Below, piece by piece: positions 14,010 to 30,140 of a stretch of DNA of 64,000 nucleotides (positions are counted from its first letter, which is position 1; each line of letters opens with the position of its first letter). The stretch covers positions 100,927 through 164,926 of the forward strand of contig JACQLQ010000004.1 of the NCBI GenBank assembly GCA_016204045.1, in the 5' to 3' direction. The stretch is from Parcubacteria group bacterium. Its GTDB lineage: Bacteria; Patescibacteriota; Minisyncoccia; Phycocordibacterales; UBA2135. The position numbers and the translations under genes are program-made. The notes below the pieces were generated by a model. It ran no database searches, was not told the DNA's origin, and saw only the letters and a program-made list of their open reading frames with translations.

Positions 14010-14687
14010 GTGTACAACAGTGGGAGATCAACTCGCGGAATCCCAATGAAGCCAGAGACAATAGCGAGGGCGCAGGCTGTTGACGAAACCTACTTCGGCA
14101 ACCGACCCTTGGACCAGCTTGTCGCAGTACTCCTCTCCCAAGTCGAGTCACTCCGAAAAGAACCTACTCGTCTGAACATTCAAGCGCAGACGGGCGACAT
14201 TCAGTTCGTTCTCGTCTCCATAGCGCGAAACGAAGGTTGGGATCTTGACCAATTACTTGCAGACACGACGACCAAGGTCGAGAACCGCCGCCGTGGACGC
14301 CATTATTACGAAGCGCACATCACAATAAATCCCGTCTTCGGTAGGAAGCTCGAGCACTTCATCGAGGTGTGCAAGCCATATGAGTTTCGTGTGGCTACAC
14401 TGCTCATGCAAAAGCGCAAAAGGGATACGCCGAGACGCTCGAAAAATGACTCATTCTGTACCGGGCGAAGCATTTCATATTCTGACATTGAGACGAGAAT
14501 GCTAGCCCTTGTCGCCAAACTGAAGGCGGCGGGATTCCACGTACAGCGTTTTAAGATTGAAAGTACGCTTCTTGATTCCCGTTACGATGACTCCAAGTTC
14601 CCACTCGACCTCGCCAAATTGCCTGAGAAGGAAATAACTCCTCGCGCACCCGCATCTGGTGCCTTGTCGGGTCGCAAAGAGAAGTAA
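14010..14687 (+). CDS. Hypothetical protein
   Basis: 225-aa ORF with a GTG at 14010 or an ATG at 14046. Contains a single HxTx (HITI) motif. No confident family. Confidence 0.4.
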   Translation: MYNSGRSTRGIPMKPETIARAQAVDETYFGNRPLDQLVAVLLSQVESLRKEPTRLNIQAQTGDIQFVLVSIARNEGWDLDQLLADTTTKVENRRRGRHYYEAHITINPVFGRKLEHFIEVCKPYEFRVATLLMQKRKRDTPRRSKNDSFCTGRSISYSDIETRMLALVAKLKAAGFHVQRFKIESTLLDSRYDDSKFPLDLAKLPEKEITPRAPASGALSGRKEK

Positions 14688-16939: not shown

Positions 16940-17146
16940 TTATCTCGTTGTATTCTCCATCCCCGTCTTCATGCCGAGGAAATACCGCGGTGTGATGACA
17001 AACCAGAATCGGAAGAAACCAGGGCGTTCGATAAGCATATAGCCATCCTTACCAATCCAGATCCAATACCCCCAGATAGAGACCATACCAACGACGACTG
17101 CCATAGCCATGATGAGGGAGAATACCACTTGATCCCCTGGACTCAT
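16940..17146 (-). CDS. Small membrane protein (68 aa, 2 TM)
   Basis: Strong SD AAGGAGGTG. Its start overlaps the upstream stop (ATGA). Confidence 0.5.
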   Translation of the reverse strand: MSPGDQVVFSLIMAMAVVVGMVSIWGYWIWIGKDGYMLIERPGFFRFWFVITPRYFLGMKTGMENTTR

Positions 17147-17559
17147 GCTCCACCTCCTTGGACTGCAGCTTGCTCCTGCAATGCCTCCTTGAGAGATACG
17201 TCGTTGAAAGTCCGCTGAACGATATCGTAGATGCCACTTCTCATTACTGTGGCAGCCTCAGGTTCAACTGACTTTCTGGCATCAGTGAAACGTACCACGG
17301 TTGCATTATATGCCAACACGAGCCATGGAAACTTTCCCAAGCTCGGATGTGTACAAGCAAGCCGCACGAGCTCAATCGCTTTTTCGGAATTTGGATCGTG
17401 GATGAAAAGATCCGTAATCGCACCGGCGACAAGAAATGCCGCTTGTTTGGGATACTTAAGCAACTCCGCAATGAGTGCTTCCGGCTCGAGATCAAACAAC
17501 ATGTCTCCGTTCGTCTCGAGTCCGTAAAAGATCCCATCCCATCCTTGTGGAAGTCCCAT
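17143..17559 (-). CDS. Hypothetical cytoplasmic protein (138 aa)
   Basis: SD GAGGAG. Translationally coupled to the downstream gene. Confidence 0.5.
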   Translation of the reverse strand: MGLPQGWDGIFYGLETNGDMLFDLEPEALIAELLKYPKQAAFLVAGAITDLFIHDPNSEKAIELVRLACTHPSLGKFPWLVLAYNATVVRFTDARKSVEPEAATVMRSGIYDIVQRTFNDVSLKEALQEQAAVQGGGA

Positions 17560-17582
17560 GGCTTAGCTCCTCACCTTAGGCA

Positions 17583-17777
17583 TTAGTCGCCACTGCATCC
17601 GCCGCCACCATCGGTGGTGCAACTTGAGCTGTCGCCAACTGCGCTCGTGTAAATGAATCCATCCGATGAGCCCGATCGACCTCGACCAGGATGCTTGATG
17701 GAGAGCCACAAGGCCCACAAAATAAGTGCGACTGCAGCCACGCCGATCATCGTGATAATGACGCCCAAAGGTGTCAT
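17583..17777 (-). CDS. Small membrane protein (64 aa) with Gly/Cys/Ser/Asp-rich C-terminal tail
   Basis: SD AGGAGGA precedes the ATG at 17777. One TM helix followed by ...SSSCTTDGGGGCSGD. Confidence 0.5.
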   Translation of the reverse strand: MTPLGVIITMIGVAAVALILWALWLSIKHPGRGRSGSSDGFIYTSAVGDSSSCTTDGGGGCSGD

Positions 17778-17971
17778 GGTTCCTCCTGTTTTTGATTGCG
17801 GAGTCCATTCCGCAACTCTTCTAAAATTGTAACCTATTAAAACTGATTTGTCAAAGATTTATTGTGGTTTTGGGTGCTCCTAAAGGGGGTTTACAAAGCA
17901 ACTAAAGTATTATTTAATGTGTTAGACGTCAGTCCTATAAAAACACCAAGCCTTAACAAATGAGGTTCCCA

Positions 17972-19804
17972 ATGGCAGAGCCCTCCCCCAAGACCGTCCT
18001 GATCGGGCCAGCCGTGGAAACGCTCTTCGCAAGGAGCGTGGAATCCCCCTGGCCCCAAGACATACTGAACGATCCCGATTTGGTCCTGCACTCTGAACTT
18101 CGACAGAAGCTATGTACGGCACTCGACACGCTGTACAAACAGCTACCCGATTCACGTATGGATATTGCCGCGGCTATTGAAATGAGAATCGTCGGGGCAG
18201 ACGCGGTAGCAGAGCTCTATCGGCTTCTCACGGAGTTCCTAGACATTGATCCGAATCATCGTCGGCTCGTGTTGTATCTCCCGTTTGAGCTCCTCCCCCA
18301 CGCAGGTTGGAACCCAGCTTCCAATCTACTCCGCACATCTGCGAAATTGTTTGTAGATTCCTACATGCGCTCTTGGCGAGAGTTACTTGAGGAGACACAC
18401 GTACGAGCCAACTTTGATGACGGCAACATCCTCGAGCCAGCACTCGCCCCGAACGGACAACCCAGAGTCTCGAAGGCGGCACACCTCATCCCGCAACTCA
18501 TGCGCAAGGGACTTATCTCCCCCGATGAAGTGACGGCACTTAAGGACAGTACTTCAAGCGACATCCTGAAAGAGAGTATTGTGGAGGCGCTTTCCGCATT
18601 GGAACCCGTGCTTAAGGCTACGGCCAAGAAAGAACCAGACCATCTTACTTCCTTAAAGGGCTTACCCGACGCAATTGCCTTCGATCTGAAGAAACTCGAC
18701 ATGCGCGAAGCGCTCGACCGTTCGCGAGGCATGCCTGGGGCACGAGTCACATGGGAACGATCTGACCGAGAGGATGCACTTATCTCGAACTACGCTACAC
18801 GCATTGCGGAGGCGTTCTCGAGAAACAGCATCGTATGGGAGGATCTGGCAAAACTTTTGTCCCACACCAACAAAGTGATATGTCTCACCGCAATGCGCGG
18901 AGTACGCCTGGCAGTAGAAGCGCTGGCGGACACCGAGAGAGAGCGGGCGCTAGGCCTTTGTGTAAAATTCGGTGCGCATATCAGGGTAGACATGCCGAAC
19001 GTCTCGGATTTCTCTGATGAACTAGAGAGTCTACTCGCACATTGGGCACACCTTGGATTCGTCACCGAAGGAGACCTGCAGAAGTTCGGGTTCGCCTTGC
19101 CGAGATTGGACGCTCCATTCTCGGGGGCGGGTGCTCTTGCCTCTGACCTTAGAACATTCGACAATGTCACTTCACGGATCGCATCTGACCCAGAGCTCTC
19201 GCGGCTTTTCTATCCAGTGGCAATCTTCTTTGGTTCGCGCCTCAAAGGCTACGCCAAGAAGAATGCTGATCTCGATGCCGCAGTCTTCGTGCGACCCGGC
19301 GTCTTGGAGAGCGAGCTCGGAAAAGTGCGACGTGTGCTTGGGGAACTCTTTACCGGGCGAAACATAGACGGTAAGGTCGTCCAATTCTGGCTTGAGGCTC
19401 GAAAAGGAAGTCTTCACATACGTGACTTACCGGACCCCGATGTCCTTCTTGGTGACAGTACTTGGGTACACCTGCTTTTGGGGAGCGTGTGGCTCGGAGA
19501 AGAATCGGCAGTCCGAGAACTCTATACCAGACTGCTTCCTGGGTTCCTGCGCTCCATAGACAAGATGTCTGATGGACGTAGTATTCGAACATTCTGGCTC
19601 GATGAAATGGAGCGAGAAGTCCTGCAATACCGCTTGCTCCACAAAGGATATGGGCGGTTCTTCCCGCGGAGACTTGGGAAGGTGAACCAGGGTAGTATCG
19701 GACCCAACCCGGAAAGCACGTTTTGGGATTCGGGATACAGACGACTTGCAACAAAGCTCTTTATCTCCCGGGTATTTCTACCCCAATTGAAAACAGTTAT
19801 ATAG
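17972..19804 (+). CDS. Large hypothetical protein with embedded Pol-beta-superfamily nucleotidyltransferase motif
   Basis: FFGSRLKGYAKKNADLDAAVFV fits G[GS]-x9-13-DhD. An ATG at 17972 is preferred over the ATG at 17960, because GAGG lies 8 nt upstream of 17972. Followed by a bidirectional terminator. Confidence 0.55.
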   Translation: MAEPSPKTVLIGPAVETLFARSVESPWPQDILNDPDLVLHSELRQKLCTALDTLYKQLPDSRMDIAAAIEMRIVGADAVAELYRLLTEFLDIDPNHRRLVLYLPFELLPHAGWNPASNLLRTSAKLFVDSYMRSWRELLEETHVRANFDDGNILEPALAPNGQPRVSKAAHLIPQLMRKGLISPDEVTALKDSTSSDILKESIVEALSALEPVLKATAKKEPDHLTSLKGLPDAIAFDLKKLDMREALDRSRGMPGARVTWERSDREDALISNYATRIAEAFSRNSIVWEDLAKLLSHTNKVICLTAMRGVRLAVEALADTERERALGLCVKFGAHIRVDMPNVSDFSDELESLLAHWAHLGFVTEGDLQKFGFALPRLDAPFSGAGALASDLRTFDNVTSRIASDPELSRLFYPVAIFFGSRLKGYAKKNADLDAAVFVRPGVLESELGKVRRVLGELFTGRNIDGKVVQFWLEARKGSLHIRDLPDPDVLLGDSTWVHLLLGSVWLGEESAVRELYTRLLPGFLRSIDKMSDGRSIRTFWLDEMEREVLQYRLLHKGYGRFFPRRLGKVNQGSIGPNPESTFWDSGYRRLATKLFISRVFLPQLKTVI

Positions 19805-19814
19805 TAAATAAATA

Positions 19815-19842
19815 AGGGCAGTGAGTATCTCACTGCCCTTTT
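19815..19842. terminator. Bidirectional terminator between convergent genes
   Basis: agggcagtgag-tatc-tcactgccct followed by TTTT. Confidence 0.55.
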
Positions 19843-21257
19843 GTAATATCTATTTTATCTTGTTCCGTCGGACCGATAGACACGGCAGCGACGGGAACAC
19901 CAAGATTTTTTTGTATTGTAGAAACGCAAAGATCAATGAACGACTCCTTCGCATTCCCAGAGGGAATGACATGCGTCGTAAGTTTCGGTCTGCACTTGAG
20001 AAGTGCCTGGCCAAGCTTTTCTTGGCGCTGAAGGTGCTCTGCCCCTTCAGCGTCTTTCCGAGCCTTAATCCCCGTGACGATTCCTCGATCGATCTTCAGA
20101 AGATGCTCTGCATCTGGCACGTTGTCGACAATATCATACGCGTCGCACACCTGCCATGATCCCCTGCTCCATATCCGATCGAGACATGTAATGACGAGGT
20201 CATCGATTGCTCCGGGACCGCATGCTTCCAACGCGTAGCGGGCGGCCAACATGTCGAAATGTCCGACACGGAAGTTGCCCTGCCATGGGTGTTCTTTGTT
20301 GACGGCATCTGGCAACTCTAATGCAAGCTCGGACGCTTCAGTGACAAATGGACCTCCGCCGTGCCGCGTGTGATAGGCGCGGAGAATGCCCAAACTTTGC
20401 ACAGCTCCATCATAGTCGCATTCGCGCAAGATGCTCTGCGCCATTTGGGGAATCGTGCGCACTTTCGTCGTATGCGGATGAAAGCCCTGATACCGATCGA
20501 GGAGTACTCCTTGAGAACCCTCAAAGACTACTGTCCCCTCTCTACCAAGTATCTTTTCTGCCACGTATGTATCGTCGACAATGCGCACCTGCCCCACAAG
20601 GTCACCGAAGCGTTCGACTGCCCACTCGACGGTATCGGAATCTTCCATGTCTGCAAGTTCGGCAAGGACACGATGGCGCACATCGGGTGGAACAGTGCTT
20701 GCGCGATCCGCAAATTCCTCGAACTCCGTCCATTTGCAGCGCTGAATGGCTTCCAATTTCTCTCGTAGCAGATCAGTGTTATGCAAATCCTTGATCCTAA
20801 TAGCTCCATCGTTCAAGACTTCGGAGTCAAGCACCGTCTCGCCGACACCAATACCGACAGAGCCGCGTCGCCCCTGGCCACGCATGAGTTCGCGGACACG
20901 GCCGGCAATGGCTTGAAATGGAGTGATGACAAGAGCGTCTTCGTGAATGGTCATGATGTCCAATGCACCGCGAACACCACTCTTCTCTCGCAACCATTCT
21001 TCTTCTTTAAGTATCGCAGCCGGATCGACGAGCATATGCTTCGAGAGATGCGTACCTGCACCCTCAAATGTGCCGGAGCCAAACTGCGAGAAGACGTGCT
21101 CTCTGCCATCTCTACACACCACGTGATGCAGGGCTTGCGGCCCGCCTGTGCGAATCACTGTGTGCGCTTTGTGCTTGCGCGACAACCAGTGCGTCGTAGT
21201 ACCCTTGCCTTCATCTCCATACCCGAGTCCTGTCACTATAAACGCTTTTCTCGTCAT
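19830..21257 (-). CDS. purA: Adenylosuccinate synthetase
   Basis: N-terminal P-loop GLGYGDEGKGTTTHWL matches the GDEGKGK family signature. Length is 475 aa. SD AAGGAGGA precedes the start. Confidence 0.85.
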   Translation of the reverse strand: MTRKAFIVTGLGYGDEGKGTTTHWLSRKHKAHTVIRTGGPQALHHVVCRDGREHVFSQFGSGTFEGAGTHLSKHMLVDPAAILKEEEWLREKSGVRGALDIMTIHEDALVITPFQAIAGRVRELMRGQGRRGSVGIGVGETVLDSEVLNDGAIRIKDLHNTDLLREKLEAIQRCKWTEFEEFADRASTVPPDVRHRVLAELADMEDSDTVEWAVERFGDLVGQVRIVDDTYVAEKILGREGTVVFEGSQGVLLDRYQGFHPHTTKVRTIPQMAQSILRECDYDGAVQSLGILRAYHTRHGGGPFVTEASELALELPDAVNKEHPWQGNFRVGHFDMLAARYALEACGPGAIDDLVITCLDRIWSRGSWQVCDAYDIVDNVPDAEHLLKIDRGIVTGIKARKDAEGAEHLQRQEKLGQALLKCRPKLTTHVIPSGNAKESFIDLCVSTIQKNLGVPVAAVSIGPTEQDKIDITKGQ

Positions 21258-21326
21258 CGCGGCTCCTCCTTTCGTTTCGTGTTTAGAAAACAGGGCGGTC
21301 CTGTGGGCCGCCCTGGCTTGGAGACA

Positions 21327-22439
21327 TTATAGTTTCCAATCCGGCTTCTCTTTACCTTTGGGGGCCGGCTTCTTGTCCTTTGACTTTGAACGCGGAGGAG
21401 AACCCTTTGTCCCGATCGGCCAGATGTCCTCGCGGCTCGCAAACGTGGCACCCGCCATAGGAATCTTGTCGAAATTCGGAAGCGTAGTCTGAAGACCAAT
21501 GGGAATTCCAGAACATGCCTCGACGATACGCTTCGCTTCGGAAGCTGTGACTTTAGCTTCCTTGAGGAAGTCGACTGCGCTCTGAAGATCGAGTACACCT
21601 TCGGTGAGTCCGATGATGACGGCCTGTACTTCGGCAAGGTCTTCTGTCTTTGGCAACCGAATAACACGTTCCTCGCCGAGGACCTTCGACCACCACTCTG
21701 CGGTGTAGCGATTGTTTCCAACCTGCAGGAAAAAGCCATGCCAGTTTCGGAGCAACTTCTTCGCGACTTCAACCGTCGAAGGCAATGACTGGGGTGAACC
21801 CTTACCAAATGCCTTTTCGAGGACTGATGGTCCGAAGACCTGCTCAAGCACTCGCCCATCGAATGAATCGCGCCCAATCTCATCGCCTACCGAGAAGTAG
21901 TAGCCACGAAGCCCGTACTCGGTAATTGCTGCCCTGGTGAGATGTGCTGCTGCAAAAAGTCCGAGCTGATAATCTTCGGTGGAATCCCCACCACTTCTCT
22001 CGGGAACCAAGAGCCCCATCTGCCGTTCGACTTCATTGTCTGGCTCGAACATGGAACGCTGGTAGGGAAATTGATCAACACGGTCCTGCACGACGCCGGT
22101 GCACAACTGTGCGTGATAACGGCGCAATACTGCATTCCCACCCTGTATGAGCAGATTCTGCACCTTGGGCTGCACCTTGAAAGCAATCTCCACGTTGCCA
22201 CCCATTGAGCCAGTCGTATCGACATCCGTCTCGACGGGTATCGCGACACCGAACTTGAGCTCAAATTCATCGCTCCCGGGTACGGGCACGAGAAGGTTGT
22301 TCGCTTCGCGGATGACACCCCGCTCTTTGGGGTCCACAAGAGAATCGAGGCCTTTGCCTTGTTTGGCGCGCTGTTCGCCCTCAAATGTTACCGAGCCAAG
22401 CTTTTTCGCCACAGCGGCTCTCGAAGTATAGTCGGCCAT
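21327..22439 (-). CDS. von Willebrand factor A (vWA) domain protein, paralog 1, with Lys-rich ...WKL C-terminus
   Basis: MIDAS-like DVDTTGSMGG. Shares several blocks with the ORF at 23808..24854 (GGxxxxY, GDEIG/GDEG, RVIRLPK/RVILLPK, KGKExxxWKL). Start at the ATG at 22439 is a best guess; the listed ORF runs to 22538. Confidence 0.55.
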   Translation of the reverse strand: MADYTSRAAVAKKLGSVTFEGEQRAKQGKGLDSLVDPKERGVIREANNLLVPVPGSDEFELKFGVAIPVETDVDTTGSMGGNVEIAFKVQPKVQNLLIQGGNAVLRRYHAQLCTGVVQDRVDQFPYQRSMFEPDNEVERQMGLLVPERSGGDSTEDYQLGLFAAAHLTRAAITEYGLRGYYFSVGDEIGRDSFDGRVLEQVFGPSVLEKAFGKGSPQSLPSTVEVAKKLLRNWHGFFLQVGNNRYTAEWWSKVLGEERVIRLPKTEDLAEVQAVIIGLTEGVLDLQSAVDFLKEAKVTASEAKRIVEACSGIPIGLQTTLPNFDKIPMAGATFASREDIWPIGTKGSPPRSKSKDKKPAPKGKEKPDWKL

Positions 22440-22717
22440 AGAGAATGTGCCTTTAGTTCTCACGGGCGGTCTCCTTGTGAAAGAGCTTTTTCGCCGGAAA
22501 TCACTGTCTTGTGTTTCGGCGCCACCAGCAGTGTACATCGCTTGTCGACCCGTGTCAAAACTGGTCTCTAGGGGTCGCTCGCTCTCTACACGTGGTGTCT
22601 ACTTGGTATCGTATCAGGAAGAGAGTAAGTGTCAAGTATACACTATGTTACAACCCAAAGGCTGGTGTGAGTCAACAAAAAACCTGGGGGGTCGTCCCAG
22701 GTTGTTACTTCTATGTA

Positions 22718-23656
22718 TCAGATCGGATTGGCGGTCGTATATTCCTGCCAAAAGGCAAGCGCTTCTTTTGAATGCTCGCGAGAAATCTCATCGCACAGCA
22801 TGAAGTGCTTGAAGCCCAGTATACGCATCAACTCAATGTCGGAAATATCCGCCATAGAGACTCCTCCCCCATCAAGTCCCAGGAGAAGGCGTGAGGCACA
22901 GATCGCGCGCGGATCTTTCTCTGCAATCTCGCGGAGTGCACCGACCATTTTCCCCACACCAATCTGAATCATCAAATCATCGCGCGCAGCCATCAGTCGA
23001 TACGGACTGCCGTTTGAGAAATGCTTTTGCTCAAGCCCGCGCACGAACTCAACTCCCGCTTGTGATTCGATCTTCAATACAATTTCGCATTCTTCAAGAG
23101 ACACCGCTCCTCGAGAATGCCGCTCGATGGCTTCTTCGAGTTCACGAACATCATCCCTGCTTTCGATAAAAGAAAGCATGAACCGCCTAATCCCCTGTTC
23201 CAGTGCCGCTTTGATATATTCGTGGTCGAGAGGAAGAAGACCGCCCTCAATCGTAAGTCTCTTGGCGAGTATGTTCACTGACTGCCCCTTGCCGACGAAT
23301 TTCGGTTTGGAGTCTACAAAGAGCTCATTACCACGCCGCACCTCACGGAGTTCACACGGCTGATCGCCACGCAAATATACTGTTGCTGGCAATTCTACCG
23401 AAATACCGTGGTTGAGGATAATCGGGCTATCGGGCACCACAGCCCATTCGATAATGCGGAGTTGTCTACCCTTCAAATCAACATAGAAAGGCTTATTGAG
23501 CGGCTTTGCAAGCGCTTGAATGCGCTCCAGTGCCCCATATGGGCCGCATACAGACTCTACTCCTGTGTTGTATCGAACTGCTTCAACAATCGGATTCGCA
23601 ACAATCGATCGCAAAAGTTCACTCTGGTGTACGGGCGGTAAGCTAGAGATGAGCAT
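22718..23656 (-). CDS. Standalone PK/HpcH/CitE-superfamily (beta/alpha)8-barrel protein (pyruvate-kinase-barrel-like)
   Basis: IVLKIESQAGVEF and LMAARDDLMIQIG match the pyruvate kinase active-site signature (KIEN...MVARGDLG), which is also seen in HpcH and CitE. At 313-319 aa it is too short for a full PK. Confidence 0.5.
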   Translation of the reverse strand: MLISSLPPVHQSELLRSIVANPIVEAVRYNTGVESVCGPYGALERIQALAKPLNKPFYVDLKGRQLRIIEWAVVPDSPIILNHGISVELPATVYLRGDQPCELREVRRGNELFVDSKPKFVGKGQSVNILAKRLTIEGGLLPLDHEYIKAALEQGIRRFMLSFIESRDDVRELEEAIERHSRGAVSLEECEIVLKIESQAGVEFVRGLEQKHFSNGSPYRLMAARDDLMIQIGVGKMVGALREIAEKDPRAICASRLLLGLDGGGVSMADISDIELMRILGFKHFMLCDEISREHSKEALAFWQEYTTANPI

Positions 23657-23807
23657 GGGCAATGTCTCCCCTACCACGGACTATCTGCACAAGGAATACC
23701 ACATATATTGCACTCATGTCAATGTCTATGTGTTTAAGTATTGCAATAAAAAACCGCAAGCGATGCGTCGCCTGCAGTGTGCTATCTCTCTAGCTTCTAT
23801 GTGTGTG

Positions 23808-24854
23808 TTAGAGCTTCCAGCTCTGGTCTTTGTTACCCTCATCCTTGCCCTTAGCGCCTGGCTTTTTCTTTTTCTTCGTCCCGGTATCTTTGGGCGGGTC
23901 TTCATCTGAGGTCGAACGCGCAGCCTTGATTGGCTTGAAGTTCTTTAGCGGCTCAAGTGCTGCCGCGACCTGGCGAATGCGTTCAGGCGACTGTGGTTCG
24001 TAGACAACATCTTGTCCCAAGTTGAGTGGCCGTGTCCGCATATCTTCCAGGTACTCGGCAAGAGTTCGCGCGCCCGAGACGATAGCGTAGACCCCGAGCG
24101 TGACGTCGCCAATGGCAAGGTCGCCATCGTCGCCCTTCGGGAGTAGGATCACCCTATCCCTACCAAGAGCTTCGCGCCATTCGCTCACAATGCGAGCATC
24201 CAATTCGTTTGGATAATGCCGATGAATGAGCAACGCATTACCCTTAAATTTCTTCACAAGATCAGCAAACACCTTGTTCGCGGTCGTATCCTGGTGCTCT
24301 CCACCAAAATGTTCGCTAAGATCCGCACCATAAAGTTGCGGATAGAATCCCTCATCTCCCGTGAAGAGGAAAATGGGCACTTCGGCGTTCGGCATGTCAA
24401 AGAGGTATGCATAGTAATACGCGACCACTTCATACGACTCCCTGTGTTGACCGCCACCACCGCCCTCAAAGTAAATTTTCTTGAAGTACTTATCGAGGTT
24501 CCGTAAGGCGGAAAAGTCTGCCATTTGGAGCGGGGCATTATCCCAGGTGATGTCACCAACCGCGGACAGACTCATCTCGGGTTCCCGAAGATAGTCACGC
24601 GCTACAATCTGACCAACAATGCCTGGCCACTTGTCGTAGATGATCTTGGGCAGTCTACCCATGGACCCAGTCACATCAAAGGCATAGACCAGAGGGCTTC
24701 GCGCACTGCACACGAGTCTGCGATTTTTTGGCAAGAACGATGGGTCAACTCTCGCCTGGGAAAGGTCTCTCTCTGCAACGCTCGTAAATCCACTTGCTGT
24801 ACGAAGCGCTTTGCTAGTTACGTCACGACCATAGAAGTCGCCGCTACCACCCAT
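23808..24854 (-). CDS. von Willebrand factor A (vWA) domain protein, paralog 2, with Lys-rich ...WKL C-terminus
   Basis: MIDAS-like FDVTGSMGR. SD GGAGGA precedes the ATG at 24854. C-terminal KKKKKPGAKGKDEGNKDQSWKL. Confidence 0.6.
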   Translation of the reverse strand: MGGSGDFYGRDVTSKALRTASGFTSVAERDLSQARVDPSFLPKNRRLVCSARSPLVYAFDVTGSMGRLPKIIYDKWPGIVGQIVARDYLREPEMSLSAVGDITWDNAPLQMADFSALRNLDKYFKKIYFEGGGGGQHRESYEVVAYYYAYLFDMPNAEVPIFLFTGDEGFYPQLYGADLSEHFGGEHQDTTANKVFADLVKKFKGNALLIHRHYPNELDARIVSEWREALGRDRVILLPKGDDGDLAIGDVTLGVYAIVSGARTLAEYLEDMRTRPLNLGQDVVYEPQSPERIRQVAAALEPLKNFKPIKAARSTSDEDPPKDTGTKKKKKPGAKGKDEGNKDQSWKL

Positions 24855-24984
24855 GGGAGATCCTCCTTTCAAGGATCTTGTGTAGAAACTGCCCTCACCA
24901 TAACGGAAGGATGCTCCATTGTCAATAATGCCAAAAGAAAAAGCCTCGGCATGAATATGCCGAGGCGTATGACGATAAAGAACG

Positions 24985-26955
24985 TTAGGCGACAGCAACG
25001 GCTTCGCCACCGTTGACGATATTCCGCGCCTCGATTTGCGCAATGATCTCGGCTCCACCCGGAACCAAGTCGCGCTCCTTAATATCCTCGATAATCTCTC
25101 TCGCATTTTCGGGCAAGAGTCTGCGAGAAGAAGACTCTGAAATCGCAAGAAGTGTCATGAGGTCAATCTCTGTTTGACTCGCCGAAGGAATGAAGTCCTC
25201 GATCGATGCCCGAAGTGCCTCATCATCAACCTTGTCCTTGCGCATCTCACCCGCAAACTTGAATGCCTTGAGCGTAATCGCTTCAACATCAGCTCCGGAG
25301 CGCCCCTTGACCATTGCGGCGAAGGGGGCAAAATTGGTTACCGAATTCGGAATATCGTATCGGCGAAACATGACCGTAAAGATCGAGGCGATCTCCACCT
25401 CTGTTGGCATCAAAAGCGCAATACGATCATCGCTCCGACCGCTCCGCTTCAGCGCGGCATCCATGCGATCGGGCCTGTTGGTACAGTTGATCATGAGGAT
25501 ACGCCCGCGAATCTTCGGATCAGAAAGGAACTCCATCCACGCGCGCATAATGCGTTCCGAGACACCGGAGTCGCCCTTTGGCGAATCGCGGTTTGCCTCT
25601 CCCAAGTCTACCTCATCGTTCATGACGATGACTGGCGCAAGCGCCCACAGCCCTTGGATCTGAAGCTCGGTCCGTTCTTCGGACTGCCCCACCCACATTG
25701 ACCGCGCGTTTTTCATTCTAACGAAGTTGAAACGAGCGCCCTTGGCGAGAGCCTGACCCAAAGCAGTCTTGCCCGTGCCTGGGGGACCCATAAGGGTAAC
25801 GCCCTGTGGAATGAGACGTATCTCGTTCCTGGTGATAGCATCGATCACGTTCGCAAAGTATCTCTTTACTTTCTCCAAGCCGCCGATCTCATTGAGGCTC
25901 CACTGCGGTTCGACGATTTCCATCACTGACCCATATTCGGCATTCAAGATTTCGTTCTTCCTCGCCTTTACGAAAGAAAGGTCAATTGGACGTTTCGCCT
26001 GCGCGGCAGTACGGAAGACCTCGAGGATCTGCCGCAAGCTCAGGCCTTGTGTCGCGTTAACGAATGCGTTGAGATCAAAATCTTCGGGGACTTCAAAGTG
26101 CGGAGGAAACTCTTGCAGGCGTTCCTCTAGCCCTTCAATCTCCTCTGTTGTCTCACTCTTCGCGCTACCCTTGGCACGCGGAAGCTTCTTCTTCAACGCG
26201 CTCAACTGGGCTTCAATCTCCTGCTCTTCTGGCAGACCATACGCCTGGCGTTCGATATAGCATCTGCGCTCCTCGGCCGTCGGCTTCGGAATAAAGACGC
26301 TACTAATTCTGGCTGATGACTGACGCAACTCACCGGAGACCTTGGTCGCGAGATCAGTAAGAAGCAATACGATATTGCTCCGCTTCTTTACGCGAGAATC
26401 CTGCGCCCACGCACGAAGTCGTGCAATATGCGTCCGCTCCGCAGCGAGAAGCGCTCCACCTGTCGACTCGGGCACAATAAGATGTGCTGATTCGATAACC
26501 ACGGCAACGCGCTCCATATCTTTGAGCACTTTCTCAATGAGGGGCAAGCACAGCTCCGGTTCGCGAGGGAGTTGCCGCTTTGCGGCAAGCCCAGCCTTCG
26601 CGGCGGCAACGGCGTCTTTCGCGGCTTTTGCCGCGTCTTCCTCACTTTGGAGCCCCGCGACCTTGCGAAACTCCCTTTCCATGTCAGGGGTGAGAAAACG
26701 AAGACCTGTCGCGATGTCGTAGAAAATCACCATCTCTTGCGCGCTCAACAAGCGCTTGAAGAACTCGTGAAGTGGAATATACGGATACCGCGGCTCATCT
26801 TCTACTTCTGGGTTTGGCACGAGGCAATTGATGTCACCGTGCAACAAGAAGACCGAGGAGATAGACGATACACCACGATTGAACTTGTCGAGCACTCCCG
26901 CCGTAAACCACGGGGGCACCTTGGGAAGCACTGGGGCGGCGGTCTTGTCTTTCAT
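24985..26955 (-). CDS. Classic-clade AAA+ ATPase with long N-terminal region (possibly a degenerate D1 domain)
   Basis: Walker A GPPGTGKT, Walker B VIVMNDEVD, and second region of homology NRPDRMDAALKRSGRSDDRI. SD AAGGAGA lies 7 nt before the ATG at 26955, 11 nt after the upstream stop. Confidence 0.8.
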   Translation of the reverse strand: MKDKTAAPVLPKVPPWFTAGVLDKFNRGVSSISSVFLLHGDINCLVPNPEVEDEPRYPYIPLHEFFKRLLSAQEMVIFYDIATGLRFLTPDMEREFRKVAGLQSEEDAAKAAKDAVAAAKAGLAAKRQLPREPELCLPLIEKVLKDMERVAVVIESAHLIVPESTGGALLAAERTHIARLRAWAQDSRVKKRSNIVLLLTDLATKVSGELRQSSARISSVFIPKPTAEERRCYIERQAYGLPEEQEIEAQLSALKKKLPRAKGSAKSETTEEIEGLEERLQEFPPHFEVPEDFDLNAFVNATQGLSLRQILEVFRTAAQAKRPIDLSFVKARKNEILNAEYGSVMEIVEPQWSLNEIGGLEKVKRYFANVIDAITRNEIRLIPQGVTLMGPPGTGKTALGQALAKGARFNFVRMKNARSMWVGQSEERTELQIQGLWALAPVIVMNDEVDLGEANRDSPKGDSGVSERIMRAWMEFLSDPKIRGRILMINCTNRPDRMDAALKRSGRSDDRIALLMPTEVEIASIFTVMFRRYDIPNSVTNFAPFAAMVKGRSGADVEAITLKAFKFAGEMRKDKVDDEALRASIEDFIPSASQTEIDLMTLLAISESSSRRLLPENAREIIEDIKERDLVPGGAEIIAQIEARNIVNGGEAVAVA

Positions 26956-26965
26956 CGGCTTCTCC

Positions 26966-27664
26966 TTAGTGGTCATGACGATGGCCATGGCCGTGTTGGT
27001 GGCTCTCCGTGTGGCCGTGCTTGTCACGAGTTTCGCCCGGGAAGGGATCGCCCTGCTTGATTGCGCGCTTCCCAAGGACAAGCTTCACTCCGAGCCGAGC
27101 CGCAAGCGCCAGAAACTTTGCTGTTGCGAGATCGAGCGCCTTGCGTGACTTGAAGTGTTCGAAGACAATCTCGGAGACATCGCCCCGTCGCGTGATCTTG
27201 ATGTAGTCAGAGGGGTGTGATTTCCCTGCCTCTTCGGCTTCGAGCACAAGCTCTTCGCCTTTTTGCGTAATCGTCACCGTGTAATCGAGAAGTTCTGCCA
27301 CAATGCCGAGAATCTCGAATTGCCAACGATTGGAAACAGCCGAGCTTCGTTCACTCAGCCGCGCTTTTTCGCGAGCAGAGGTAAAGCTCCCCTTCGCCTC
27401 AAGCATCCCTTGCGCATTTACGGTGAAATCGAGACCTCCACCGTCCACTTTCGCAAGGGCGCGCTTAAGCGCCTCAGTGAGAAGCGACTCGACGTCTATC
27501 TCATTACCAGTAATCCATTCCAAGAATGTCGAATCTTCTATACCGAGCTTTTCCAAGAGGTCTGCATCGATATCAAGGGCCTTTGCCTTTTCAGTAAATA
27601 CTTGCGGCTGCGGCGCTGGAATTGTGACCTTAGTAACACTTCTATATCCGATATCGCACGGCAT
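26966..27664 (-). CDS. Hypothetical protein with His-rich C-terminal tail
   Basis: 232 aa ending ...DKHGHTESHQHGHGHRHDH. It is the first gene of the AAA/vWA cluster. Confidence 0.5.
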   Translation of the reverse strand: MPCDIGYRSVTKVTIPAPQPQVFTEKAKALDIDADLLEKLGIEDSTFLEWITGNEIDVESLLTEALKRALAKVDGGGLDFTVNAQGMLEAKGSFTSAREKARLSERSSAVSNRWQFEILGIVAELLDYTVTITQKGEELVLEAEEAGKSHPSDYIKITRRGDVSEIVFEHFKSRKALDLATAKFLALAARLGVKLVLGKRAIKQGDPFPGETRDKHGHTESHQHGHGHRHDH

Positions 27665-29369: not shown

Positions 29370-30071
29370 TCAGCTCTTAGGCGGAATCTCCTCCACCTCA
29401 TCAGCATACACGAACCCCATCTCCTGGACGCCAAGTGGGGAGAGATCGACATCATATCCACCCTCGCGCTTGTGGATCACTCTAAAGGAGTGTCCCTTAA
29501 CGCGCTCAAAGAACCCGGGGACTTTTAGTCTGTGTTGCCTGACCACCCGAACCCTGATTACAGGAACACTCTTCACGAGAACGCGCCCCCAGCCATCTGT
29601 CGTCCACACCTCTGATGTCGTCTCCTTGGGAGACGTGTTGAGACGCGACTCGAGCACAATGGCCGCCTTTCTGACTTCAGACGTGAGGTCATAGGTAAGC
29701 ATCTCAGCGTACGTAACCCATGCGTGGTCGGTGTGCTCTTCGCTCAAGGCGAGGGTGCCACCGACAAGCCGAGTGATACTGAATATGACGACGTAGGGCA
29801 AACCCTTGTACTGCCCCGCACCAATCACGAAGCTGTCTACGAACACCTGTCGCTCTGTCGGTTCGACGAGGTACCCGGTTTCTTCCATCACTTCGCGTTC
29901 TTGCGCGTGGGAAAGATCTTGCCCTACATCCACCTTGCCACCGGCAACTTCCCATTTCCCAGGATTATTCTTATCTTTTAGCGACCGCTTGATAATGAGC
30001 CACGTGCCGTCATCGCGTCCCAAGAAGCATCGATTGACGAGAACAACACGAGGTCTGGTGTTCGCTGACAT
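29370..30071 (-). CDS. NUDIX hydrolase with C-terminal extension
   Basis: Nudix box GGKVDVGQDLSHAQEREVMEETG. ATG at 30071 with AAAGGGG upstream. Confidence 0.75.
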   Translation of the reverse strand: MSANTRPRVVLVNRCFLGRDDGTWLIIKRSLKDKNNPGKWEVAGGKVDVGQDLSHAQEREVMEETGYLVEPTERQVFVDSFVIGAGQYKGLPYVVIFSITRLVGGTLALSEEHTDHAWVTYAEMLTYDLTSEVRKAAIVLESRLNTSPKETTSEVWTTDGWGRVLVKSVPVIRVRVVRQHRLKVPGFFERVKGHSFRVIHKREGGYDVDLSPLGVQEMGFVYADEVEEIPPKS

Positions 30072-30140
30072 GGCGCCCCTTTCGCAAGGCAGAACCTTTG
30101 AGAGTAAATCACAAAAATGTAGTTTTGTCAATCAATGACT

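Follow-up and report, generated by a model that had tools for sequence, protein, structure and literature searches.

The locus examined here raises two questions: what does a large protein with a polymerase beta (Pol-beta)-type nucleotidyltransferase motif do in a bacterium of the candidate phyla radiation (CPR), and with which of its neighbors does it act? The protein is encoded by an uninterrupted open reading frame (ORF) at 17960..19804 (+; 614 aa, stop codon at 19802-19804) of a 64,000-nucleotide stretch of contig JACQLQ010000004.1. We refer to this whole stretch as the window; it comes from the chromosome of a CPR (Parcubacteria-group) bacterium and carries rpoB/rpoC, dnaG, a sigma-70 gene and one tRNA. 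The 614-aa nucleotidyltransferase was named NT600. The initial annotation, made from the sequence alone, had given the ORF as 17972-19804 (610 aa), and this frame was confirmed as uninterrupted; translation from 17972, the position of the second Met, yields the NCBI call HY455_03085 of a Parcubacteria metagenome-assembled genome (MAG), to which NT600 was a 100% match. Our analyses indicated that NT600 has a Pol-beta-fold core, that it belongs to a large CPR family and that a conserved operon converges on its gene.

A predicted Pol-beta-fold nucleotidyltransferase core

The motif reported in the initial annotation, about two-thirds of the way into the protein, is FFGSRLKGYAKKNADLDAAVFV (aa 423-444; 19226-19291, +). 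Conservation, Pfam matches and the predicted fold together indicated that it marks a real nucleotidyltransferase domain. The bare pattern G[GS]x9-13DhD[DE] is by itself weak evidence, as the six-frame ORFs of the window, 40,274 aa in all, contain it twice. Residue conservation was therefore counted over 95 distinct NT600-family sequences of 28-60% identity. G425 and S426 were present in 95/95 of these relatives and D437 and D439 in 94/95, and the signature hG[GS] followed by [DE]h[DE]h was found as FFGS…DLDAAV within aa 423-444.

Profile searches gave a consistent assignment. Pfam Polbeta matched 41 of 45 family members at E <0.01 (best 3e-7), and the only Pfam matches among these 45 members were Polbeta, NTP_transf_2 and MTPAP-like. 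The window protein itself scored below the gathering cut-offs of PF18765 (17.5 bits vs 26.9) and PF01909 (16.4 vs 21). A search of the PDB with the family profile identified HI0073, a minimal nucleotidyltransferase (MNT) protein (E 2.9e-4).

Structure comparison was carried out with a separate AlphaFold model of aa 388-614 (predicted local distance difference test score, pLDDT, 80), after a search with the whole protein had returned helical-repeat noise. In the AlphaFold2 model the strands and helices follow the order expected of an alpha-beta-alpha-beta-alpha-beta core. The leading Foldseek matches in the PDB were the MNT 7ae9_G (probability 0.96), AadA (5lpa), the Sulfolobus nucleotidyltransferase 2rff (probability 0.97, root-mean-square deviation (rmsd) 3.5 A over 93 columns) and MntA. 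Lower in the ranking came poly(A) polymerases and cGAS/DncV-like nucleotidyltransferases (CD-NTases), and the weak tail included a small number of ribosomal and flagellar-ring chains. The initial annotation had named the absence of a nucleotidyltransferase fold as the finding that would overturn it; instead, nucleotidyltransferases dominated this search, in agreement with the sequence evidence. Together, these data indicate that aa 417-530 of NT600 (19208..19549, +) are a Pol-beta-fold nucleotidyltransferase, a member of the superfamily at the level of fold.

The identity of a third catalytic acid was suggested in the initial annotation as a point to check. At the usual site on beta3, 85% of the 95 sequences have E or D and NT600 itself has Q475, and the position of D489 is D or E in 74%. 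The strictly invariant acids are E551 and D590, both in the C-terminal helices. This placement would resemble the layout of the aminoglycoside nucleotidyltransferases (ANTs), in which a helical domain contributes to catalysis. Judged from the alignment, the core is under strong purifying selection, and the pattern of GS, DxD, E551, R558, H561, D590 and R594 is as expected of an active site.

The NT600 family and its convergent operon

NT600 had been described as an orphan, which proved incorrect. A word-indexed search identified 49 full-length homologues of 433-657 aa, and a scan of one genome per species found a relative in at least 135 genomes. Nearly all of these genomes were labelled as Patescibacteria (CPR) lineages, with a few MAGs under other submitter labels; the lineages included Parcubacteria/Paceibacteria, Kaiser-, Ryan-, Yanofsky-, Falkow-, Uhr-, Moran- and Daviesbacteria, Saccharimonadia and Peribacteria. 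When 1.84 billion representative proteins were searched exhaustively with HMMER, 571 hits (representative clusters) were obtained at E <= 1e-3. Since 478 of these were at E <= 1e-30, the family is sharply delimited. The best 150 HMMER hits had lengths of 475-826 aa, and homologues were annotated at best as "nucleotidyltransferase domain-containing".

The conserved neighbor of NT600, overlooked in the initial annotation, is an operon on the opposite strand that converges on it. In the window this operon comprises six genes (19830-27664, -), encoding in order u232, an AAA ATPase, a von Willebrand factor A (vWA)-like protein (F2'), a pyruvate kinase (PK)-like barrel, a second vWA-like protein (F2) and a PurA-like ligase. 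A synteny survey of 86 NT600 loci revealed two layouts, both with NT600 convergent at the 3' end. The majority had type A (F3 -> F2 -> PurA-like -> F4), and the window has type B (u232 -> AAA -> F2' -> PK-like barrel -> F2 -> PurA-like). The PurA-like gene was present in 77/86 loci, or 77/78 of the informative loci; 7 of the 9 loci lacking it have no more than about 2.5 kb after the nucleotidyltransferase gene, and only one is clearly without it. The two genes were convergent in 71/77 pairs, with a median gap of 1.3 kb. The linkage also held in the reverse direction, as all 39 informative metagenome loci found by way of F2 carried NT600. In addition, NT600 sequence clusters never mixed type A and type B modules. 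NT600 accompanies a CPR-wide operon as its obligate partner, convergent with it and in a transcription unit of its own. Three synteny families from the survey (F12, F13 and F18) were discarded as antisense ORF artefacts of real genes.

Genes of NAD salvage flank the cluster in relatives of several CPR classes. These encode an NrtR-type regulator (Nudix/winged helix-turn-helix), a PncA-like isochorismatase, PncB, NadE and a NadD-NAD kinase fusion, and were seen at loci L008, L012, L018, L029, L044, L057, L062, L066, L070, L076 and others. NrtR was present in 16/86 loci, often directly upstream of the kinase-like gene and on the same strand. A Nudix gene in the window (29370-30131) was considered as an NrtR orthologue and rejected because it is unrelated to NrtR, and the NAD-salvage link of the relatives therefore does not extend to the window.

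Domain organization of NT600

The AlphaFold2 model of NT600, built with 45 homologues, is a single body (pLDDT 90.1, predicted TM-score (pTM) 0.91). The N-terminal domain (aa 1-215; 17960..18604, +) is all-alpha apart from one N-terminal strand and carries the motifs LYLPFE, VRANFxDG and KAAHLIP. Nine residues (Y106, P108, W139, G155, K172, H175, P178, R262 and W265) were conserved in at least 97% of the 95 sequences, and R149, N151 and D154 in about 90% or more; K172, H175, R149, N151 and D154 make up a polar cluster of the N-terminal domain. A disordered, variable linker (aa 216-234, between 18604 and 18662, +; pLDDT <50 at aa 218-226) leads to a middle helical domain (aa 235-416; 18662..19207, +), delimited from the AlphaFold2 secondary structure, in which R262 and W265 are invariant. 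The nucleotidyltransferase core, assigned from Foldseek, the HI0073 profile match and Pfam Polbeta/NTP_transf_2, contains G425, S426, D437 and D439 in its catalytic signature. It is followed by a C-terminal helical cap (aa 531-614; 19550..19801, +), whose helices reach aa 604 and in which E551, R558, H561, D590 and R594 are essentially invariant. By analogy with ANT enzymes, this cap probably binds the triphosphate and the acceptor.

The N-terminal ~415 residues had no match in Pfam, PDB sequences, PDB folds or BFVD. The full-family profile found only the MNT core among PDB sequences and nothing for the N-terminal domains, and a whole-protein Foldseek search of BFVD gave no match. An ARM-like identity of the helical domains was considered and dropped, as the whole-protein Foldseek search of the PDB produced only armadillo-repeat noise (TM <=0.14, rmsd ~20 A). 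A likeness of "NFxDGN" to the Fic motif was likewise dropped, there being no catalytic His and no GR after the motif.

In relatives of 780-826 aa the match to the family profile was split in two, suggesting that they have additional residues between the N-terminal and middle domains. At the other extreme is a 400-aa short form of NT600 (L090, 3415-4614 of IMG/VR UViG_3300028454_000294), whose gene lies in a cluster of CPR type and whose contig is classified as viral. This short form keeps the N-domain motifs, GS…DLD and the C-terminal helices, and is without most of the middle helical domain and without the beta3-beta4 hairpin.

Proteins of the convergent operon

The constant neighbor of NT600 is a PurA-like ligase of the adenylosuccinate synthetase family (19830..21257, -; PF00709, E 8e-49). 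It matched phrog_1211 (E 1e-63) with 216 bits vs 167 bits for Pfam PurA, and scored 135.6 bits against the PurA equivalog, whose cut-off is 402. The family keeps the P-loop and the equivalents of D13, H41, D333 and SxGP. At the positions of T129, R143, Q224 and the aspartate loop TTGRRR it has V, x, H and (N)RWQGxVR, respectively; the altered sites are thus the residues for the IMP phosphate, Q224 and the aspartate loop. Because the NTP-binding and catalytic residues are kept but the substrate residues are replaced, the enzyme is probably a ligase of a different substrate pair.

F2 (21327..22538, -) has a DTTGSMG motif, matches phrog_2971 and has a flexible tail ending in DWKL; its NCBI start is at Met34 (370 aa). 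Its paralogue F2' (23808..25148, -) has the motif DVTGSMG, a match to phrog_2971 (E 1e-19) and a tail ending in SWKL, and its true start is probably downstream, near 24857. Hidden Markov model searches with F2 and F2' converged on one family, in which D107, T109 and S111 of F2 are invariant. The profile of this family had no match in the PDB and its homologues are all named "hypothetical"; we refer to both proteins as vWA-like, on the basis of the DxTGSMG motif only. The same motif is found in the F2 of type A clusters (~388 aa). The CPR F2 proteins have a C-terminal extension with GDLF..K.DLWP, a flexible linker (lysine-rich in the two window proteins) and a terminal W-L (71/82), whereas their phage homologues have no W-L extension and end in (R/E)L. 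The W-L tail may be a docking peptide for NT600.

Three further genes of the window operon belong to type B. The first is a 319-aa, mini pyruvate-kinase-like TIM barrel (22718..23677, -), with weak hits to pyruvate kinase and HpcH as a single protein; its family profile matched pyruvate kinase at E 6e-15, and the active-site motifs KIE, ARDDL, RxN and DxKGxxxR are kept. The barrel corresponds to the A-domain only, without the C-domain, and could regenerate NTP for the ligase. The AAA ATPase (24985..27081, -) was identified by PF00004 and phrog_8638 (E 4e-33), and its N-terminal ~400 aa had no match. The first gene of the module, u232 (26966..27664, -), encodes a protein with no recognisable domain.

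Type A modules contain two other proteins. F3 (~288 aa) has a protein-kinase fold (CK2, E 6.5e-11) without the VAIK Lys and the HRD Asp, and is pseudokinase-like. F4 has a helix-hairpin-helix (HhH)/SAM-like N-terminus, an (HhH)2 domain similar to those of Rad51-N and RNAP-alpha-CTD.

The module in phages

A triad of kinase-like, F2 and PurA-like genes, in the same order, was found in ~200 records of Bxz1-type (C1) mycobacteriophages (e.g., LinStu gp257, gp258 and gp260), in Vibrio phage phiKT1024 and in five IMG/VR contigs of 18-395 kb. The C1 proteins, among them the vWA-like gp258, are homologous to those of the CPR module, but NT600 is absent. In a 485-kb phage (LR745208), a PK-like barrel is encoded beside the kinase-like and vWA-like genes where the PurA-like gene would otherwise be. 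A genome announcement counts a Ser/Thr kinase and a PurA-like synthetase among the conserved genes that all C1 phages share and that are unique to this group (PMC9476963). No NT600 homologue was found in phages, except on a 30-kb IMG/VR contig with the CPR-type layout and the 400-aa form.

The phiKT1024 triad (L089) is near a NADAR-family gene and a TROVE-domain gene, and that of LinStu (L087) is near Pnk; these surroundings are possible hints of an ADP-ribose/NAD or RNA-repair context. Literature searches found no published function for the phage genes or the CPR cluster.

Comparison of NT600 with known nucleotidyltransferases

The initial annotation considered the architecture of NT600 to differ from those of minimal nucleotidyltransferases and of the CD-NTases of cyclic-oligonucleotide-based anti-phage signaling systems (CBASS). 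Our data support this view: PADLOC gave no hit, Pfam recognized only the nucleotidyltransferase core, and CdnE and CdnC were weak Foldseek hits.

The best sequence and structure matches to the NT600 core were MNT/MntA proteins, the antitoxins of type VII toxin-antitoxin systems (HI0073, SO_3166, PDB 7ae9 and 7bxo), which have the hGS…DxD signature in common with NT600. These enzymes AMPylate a partner protein, which in the case of MntA is its HEPN partner. MNTs are ~100-140 aa long, whereas NT600 is 614 aa, with ~415 extra N-terminal helical residues and a helical cap, and it scored 20.2 bits against the MntA equivalog NF047752 (cut-off 60). MNT systems pair with a HEPN toxin; the partners of NT600 are the PurA-like ligase and the vWA-like protein. 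The initial annotation had also suggested a search for HEPN partners or effectors, and neither was present. Pfam-type domain scans found no HEPN family in NT600 or its neighbors. A HEPN partner was rejected on this ground and because the conserved R558-x2-H561 spacing is not that of the HEPN Rx4-6H.

ANT-type enzymes (AadA/ANT(3'')(9), AAD(9) and KNTase) resemble NT600 in that helices come after the nucleotidyltransferase core; in ANTs these help to form the active site, as they would in NT600, and the invariant acidic and basic residues in the C-terminal helices of NT600 add to this likeness. AadA, AAD(9) and ANT(9) were among the top Foldseek hits, with alignments of 158-276 columns running into the post-core helices, although their TM-scores were only ~0.3. 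ANTs lack the large N-terminal domains of NT600, and NT600 lacks a resistance-gene context. None of the 45 members matched KNTase_C, DUF4111 or other ANT C-terminal Pfam families.

GlnE is a large, mostly helical enzyme of the Pol-beta superfamily that regulates a ligase, glutamine synthetase, by adenylylation. NT600 differs from it in having no GlnE Pfam match (45 members), a different domain order and a single nucleotidyltransferase core. The CBASS enzymes CdnE and CdnC have the same superfamily fold and were weak Foldseek hits (E ~0.08-0.09, TM-scores <=0.31), but NT600 has no PADLOC match, no Cap effector and no HORMA/TRIP13-type partner, and its accessory domains differ. PADLOC gave no hit for the constant partners of NT600 either, and PHROGs had none for NT600, though its neighbors matched. 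Defining features of MNT antitoxins, CD-NTases and GlnE were each looked for in NT600 and found to be absent, so that it belongs to none of these three groups. Its enzyme class is in itself ordinary; it is the gene cluster for which no description was found in the literature.

Possible roles of NT600

Our tentative reading, held with reserve, is that NT600 is an active Pol-beta-fold nucleotidyltransferase of the MNT/ANT type that transfers AMP, or another NMP, to a protein of the module and so regulates the module. Fold, catalytic signature, family membership and linkage are established by the data; enzyme activity, ATP as donor, a protein acceptor and the regulatory role are all features that we infer. 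In this scheme NT600 would use an NTP, probably ATP, to modify a hydroxyl of one of the module's proteins with the NMP, probably as an AMPylation. The modification would regulate or restrain the module in the cell, as MntA does on HEPN or GlnE on glutamine synthetase. The helical domains would recognize the partner, for which the C-terminal W-L extension of F2 may be the docking site.

Protein AMPylation is favored as the mechanism since the nearest sequence and structure neighbors of NT600 are the protein-AMPylating MNT/MntA enzymes. The phage triads have no NT600, which argues that it is an add-on and not the core catalytic step. Together with the placement of the CPR gene in its own convergent transcription unit, this favors an add-on regulatory role. 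Also in keeping with regulation of a protein are the regulator-like, non-enzymatic parts of the module (vWA-like, pseudokinase-like and AAA ATPase), and the W-L extension of the vWA-like protein, which is the other CPR-specific feature that we found. The confident single-body model, the linkage in both directions and the separation of NT600 clusters by module type also count in favor of this reading.

Several observations weigh against protein AMPylation. The Foldseek E-values were modest (7e-3 or weaker), and small-molecule nucleotidyltransferases of the AadA type matched about as well as the MNTs. At the site of the classical third carboxylate NT600 has Q475, and both this position and 489 vary within the family. 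No acceptor residue was found, and none of the Tyr, Ser or Thr residues of the vWA-like tail is invariant. The PurA-like and PK-like neighbors are small-molecule nucleotide enzymes, and the NAD-salvage genes and NrtR that flank the cluster in many relatives would fit a metabolic pathway.

The main rival is a step in a small-molecule pathway, which we consider possible but rather unlikely. NT600 would then nucleotidylate (e.g., adenylylate) a hydroxyl or phosphate of a purine- or NAD-related metabolite that the PurA-like ligase and the kinase-like or PK-like enzymes produce or use, yielding a modified nucleotide, signal or antimetabolite. The ANT-like arrangement of core and helical domains, with AadA and ANT(9) among the top Foldseek hits, agrees with such a substrate, and an enclosed pocket for it would be consistent with the compact model (pTM 0.91). 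The neighbors would suit the pathway too: the PurA-like enzyme combines its NTP-binding and catalytic residues with a remodelled substrate pocket, the pyruvate kinase catalytic residues are present in the PK-like barrel, and NrtR, PncA-like, PncB and NadE genes recur beside the cluster. Such a pathway is harder to reconcile with the phage versions of the module, which work without NT600, and with the position of NT600, almost always in a separate convergent unit and not within the operon. Moreover, ANT C-terminal domain families were not among the Pfam hits, and the window has no NrtR-type regulator, the nearby Nudix being unrelated.

Two other activities seem improbable. One is nucleotidyl transfer to nucleic-acid 3' ends, as in repair of the tRNA/Y-RNA type or in a MenT-like activity, with the HhH and vWA-like proteins as a nucleic-acid platform. 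It would account for the (HhH)2 domain of type A F4, for the Pnk and TROVE genes near phage triads and for poly(A) polymerases and GLD-2 among the weak hits. However, the closest neighbors of NT600 are MNT and ANT enzymes and not polymerases, the polymerase-type third carboxylate is not conserved, the Pfam scan of 45 members found no RNA-binding or PAP-associated domain, and the type B module of the window has NT600 yet no HhH protein.

The other, to which we give a similarly low probability, is signal production in anti-phage defense by a CD-NTase-like or Hailong-like enzyme, with the neighboring proteins as sensors and effectors. No effector (nuclease, TIR, pore-former or similar) was found in the cluster by Pfam or PADLOC, neither NT600 nor its constant partners had a PADLOC hit, the cGAS-type architecture is absent, the TM-scores to CD-NTases did not exceed 0.31, and the neighbors are enzymes of nucleotide chemistry. 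A defense role would nevertheless be in line with the patchy CPR distribution and variable flanking genes, the sharing of the module with phages, the presence of CdnE, CdnC and HalB among weak Foldseek hits and the weak match of the AAA ATPase to the IetA models of PADLOC.

A catalytically dead scaffold, in which the nucleotidyltransferase fold is kept as a structural or nucleotide-binding module of a helical adaptor, would explain Q475 in place of the usual beta3 acid, the short 400-aa relative without the beta3-beta4 hairpin and the scores of the window protein below Pfam and NCBIfam cut-offs, but is very improbable given that GS, DxD, E551, R558, H561, D590 and R594 are essentially invariant across the 95 sequences at 28-60% identity.

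Returning to protein nucleotidylation as the preferred activity, we speculate that NT600 and the convergent operon make up an undescribed, nucleotide-centered CPR system in which NT600 is the cell-specific control enzyme, nucleotidylating a component of the module. Its core, made up of the pseudokinase-like protein, the vWA-like protein and a neo-functionalised PurA-like ligase, would be one held in common with jumbo and Bxz1-type phages. Such a system might make or attach a new purine-derived compound or protein modification for use in host-parasite or phage-host conflict; we advance this picture as a whole with the same reserve. The 5-7-gene cluster is likely to have an important role, because CPR genomes are tiny and yet many CPR lineages keep it intact. 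A tightly conserved CPR cluster, its sharing with phages and a remodelled PurA-like enzyme were unexpected, and are directly testable. The kept catalytic machinery and remodelled pocket of the PurA-like enzyme point to new ligase chemistry. As most parts of the module are without functional annotation and the core triad occurs in C1 mycobacteriophages and very large phages, explaining it could cover unknown genes in two much-studied groups. NT600 is the clearest biochemical handle on the system: it has known catalytic residues and a confident AlphaFold model, and is probably soluble.

Immediate surroundings of the NT600 gene

Between the convergent stops of NT600 and the PurA-like gene is a hairpin (19814..19840) with a perfect 12-bp stem (AAGGGCAGTGAG/CTCACTGCCCTT) and T-rich runs on both strands. 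The hairpin overlaps the stop of the PurA-like gene and looks like a bidirectional terminator shared by the two genes.

Upstream of NT600, three small ORFs (16940-17777, -) encoding 64, 138 and 68 aa lie divergent to it; the last two overlap by 4 nt. The initial annotation had drawn attention to this tight operon of tiny proteins. The arrangement is real and is preceded by a strong, near-consensus sigma-70-like promoter site (17854-17826, 11/12 matches), but a conserved link to NT600 was not supported, and the small ORFs were rejected as its partners since they are not kept beside homologues. Each was matched in at most 1 of the 86 NT600-homologue loci, and the divergent arrangement is therefore incidental. 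Two of the three small proteins resemble membrane peptides.

Further upstream, a 225-aa ORF (14010-14687, +) weakly resembled MazG-type NTP pyrophosphohydrolases in their C-terminal part, with a match below threshold (E 0.003).

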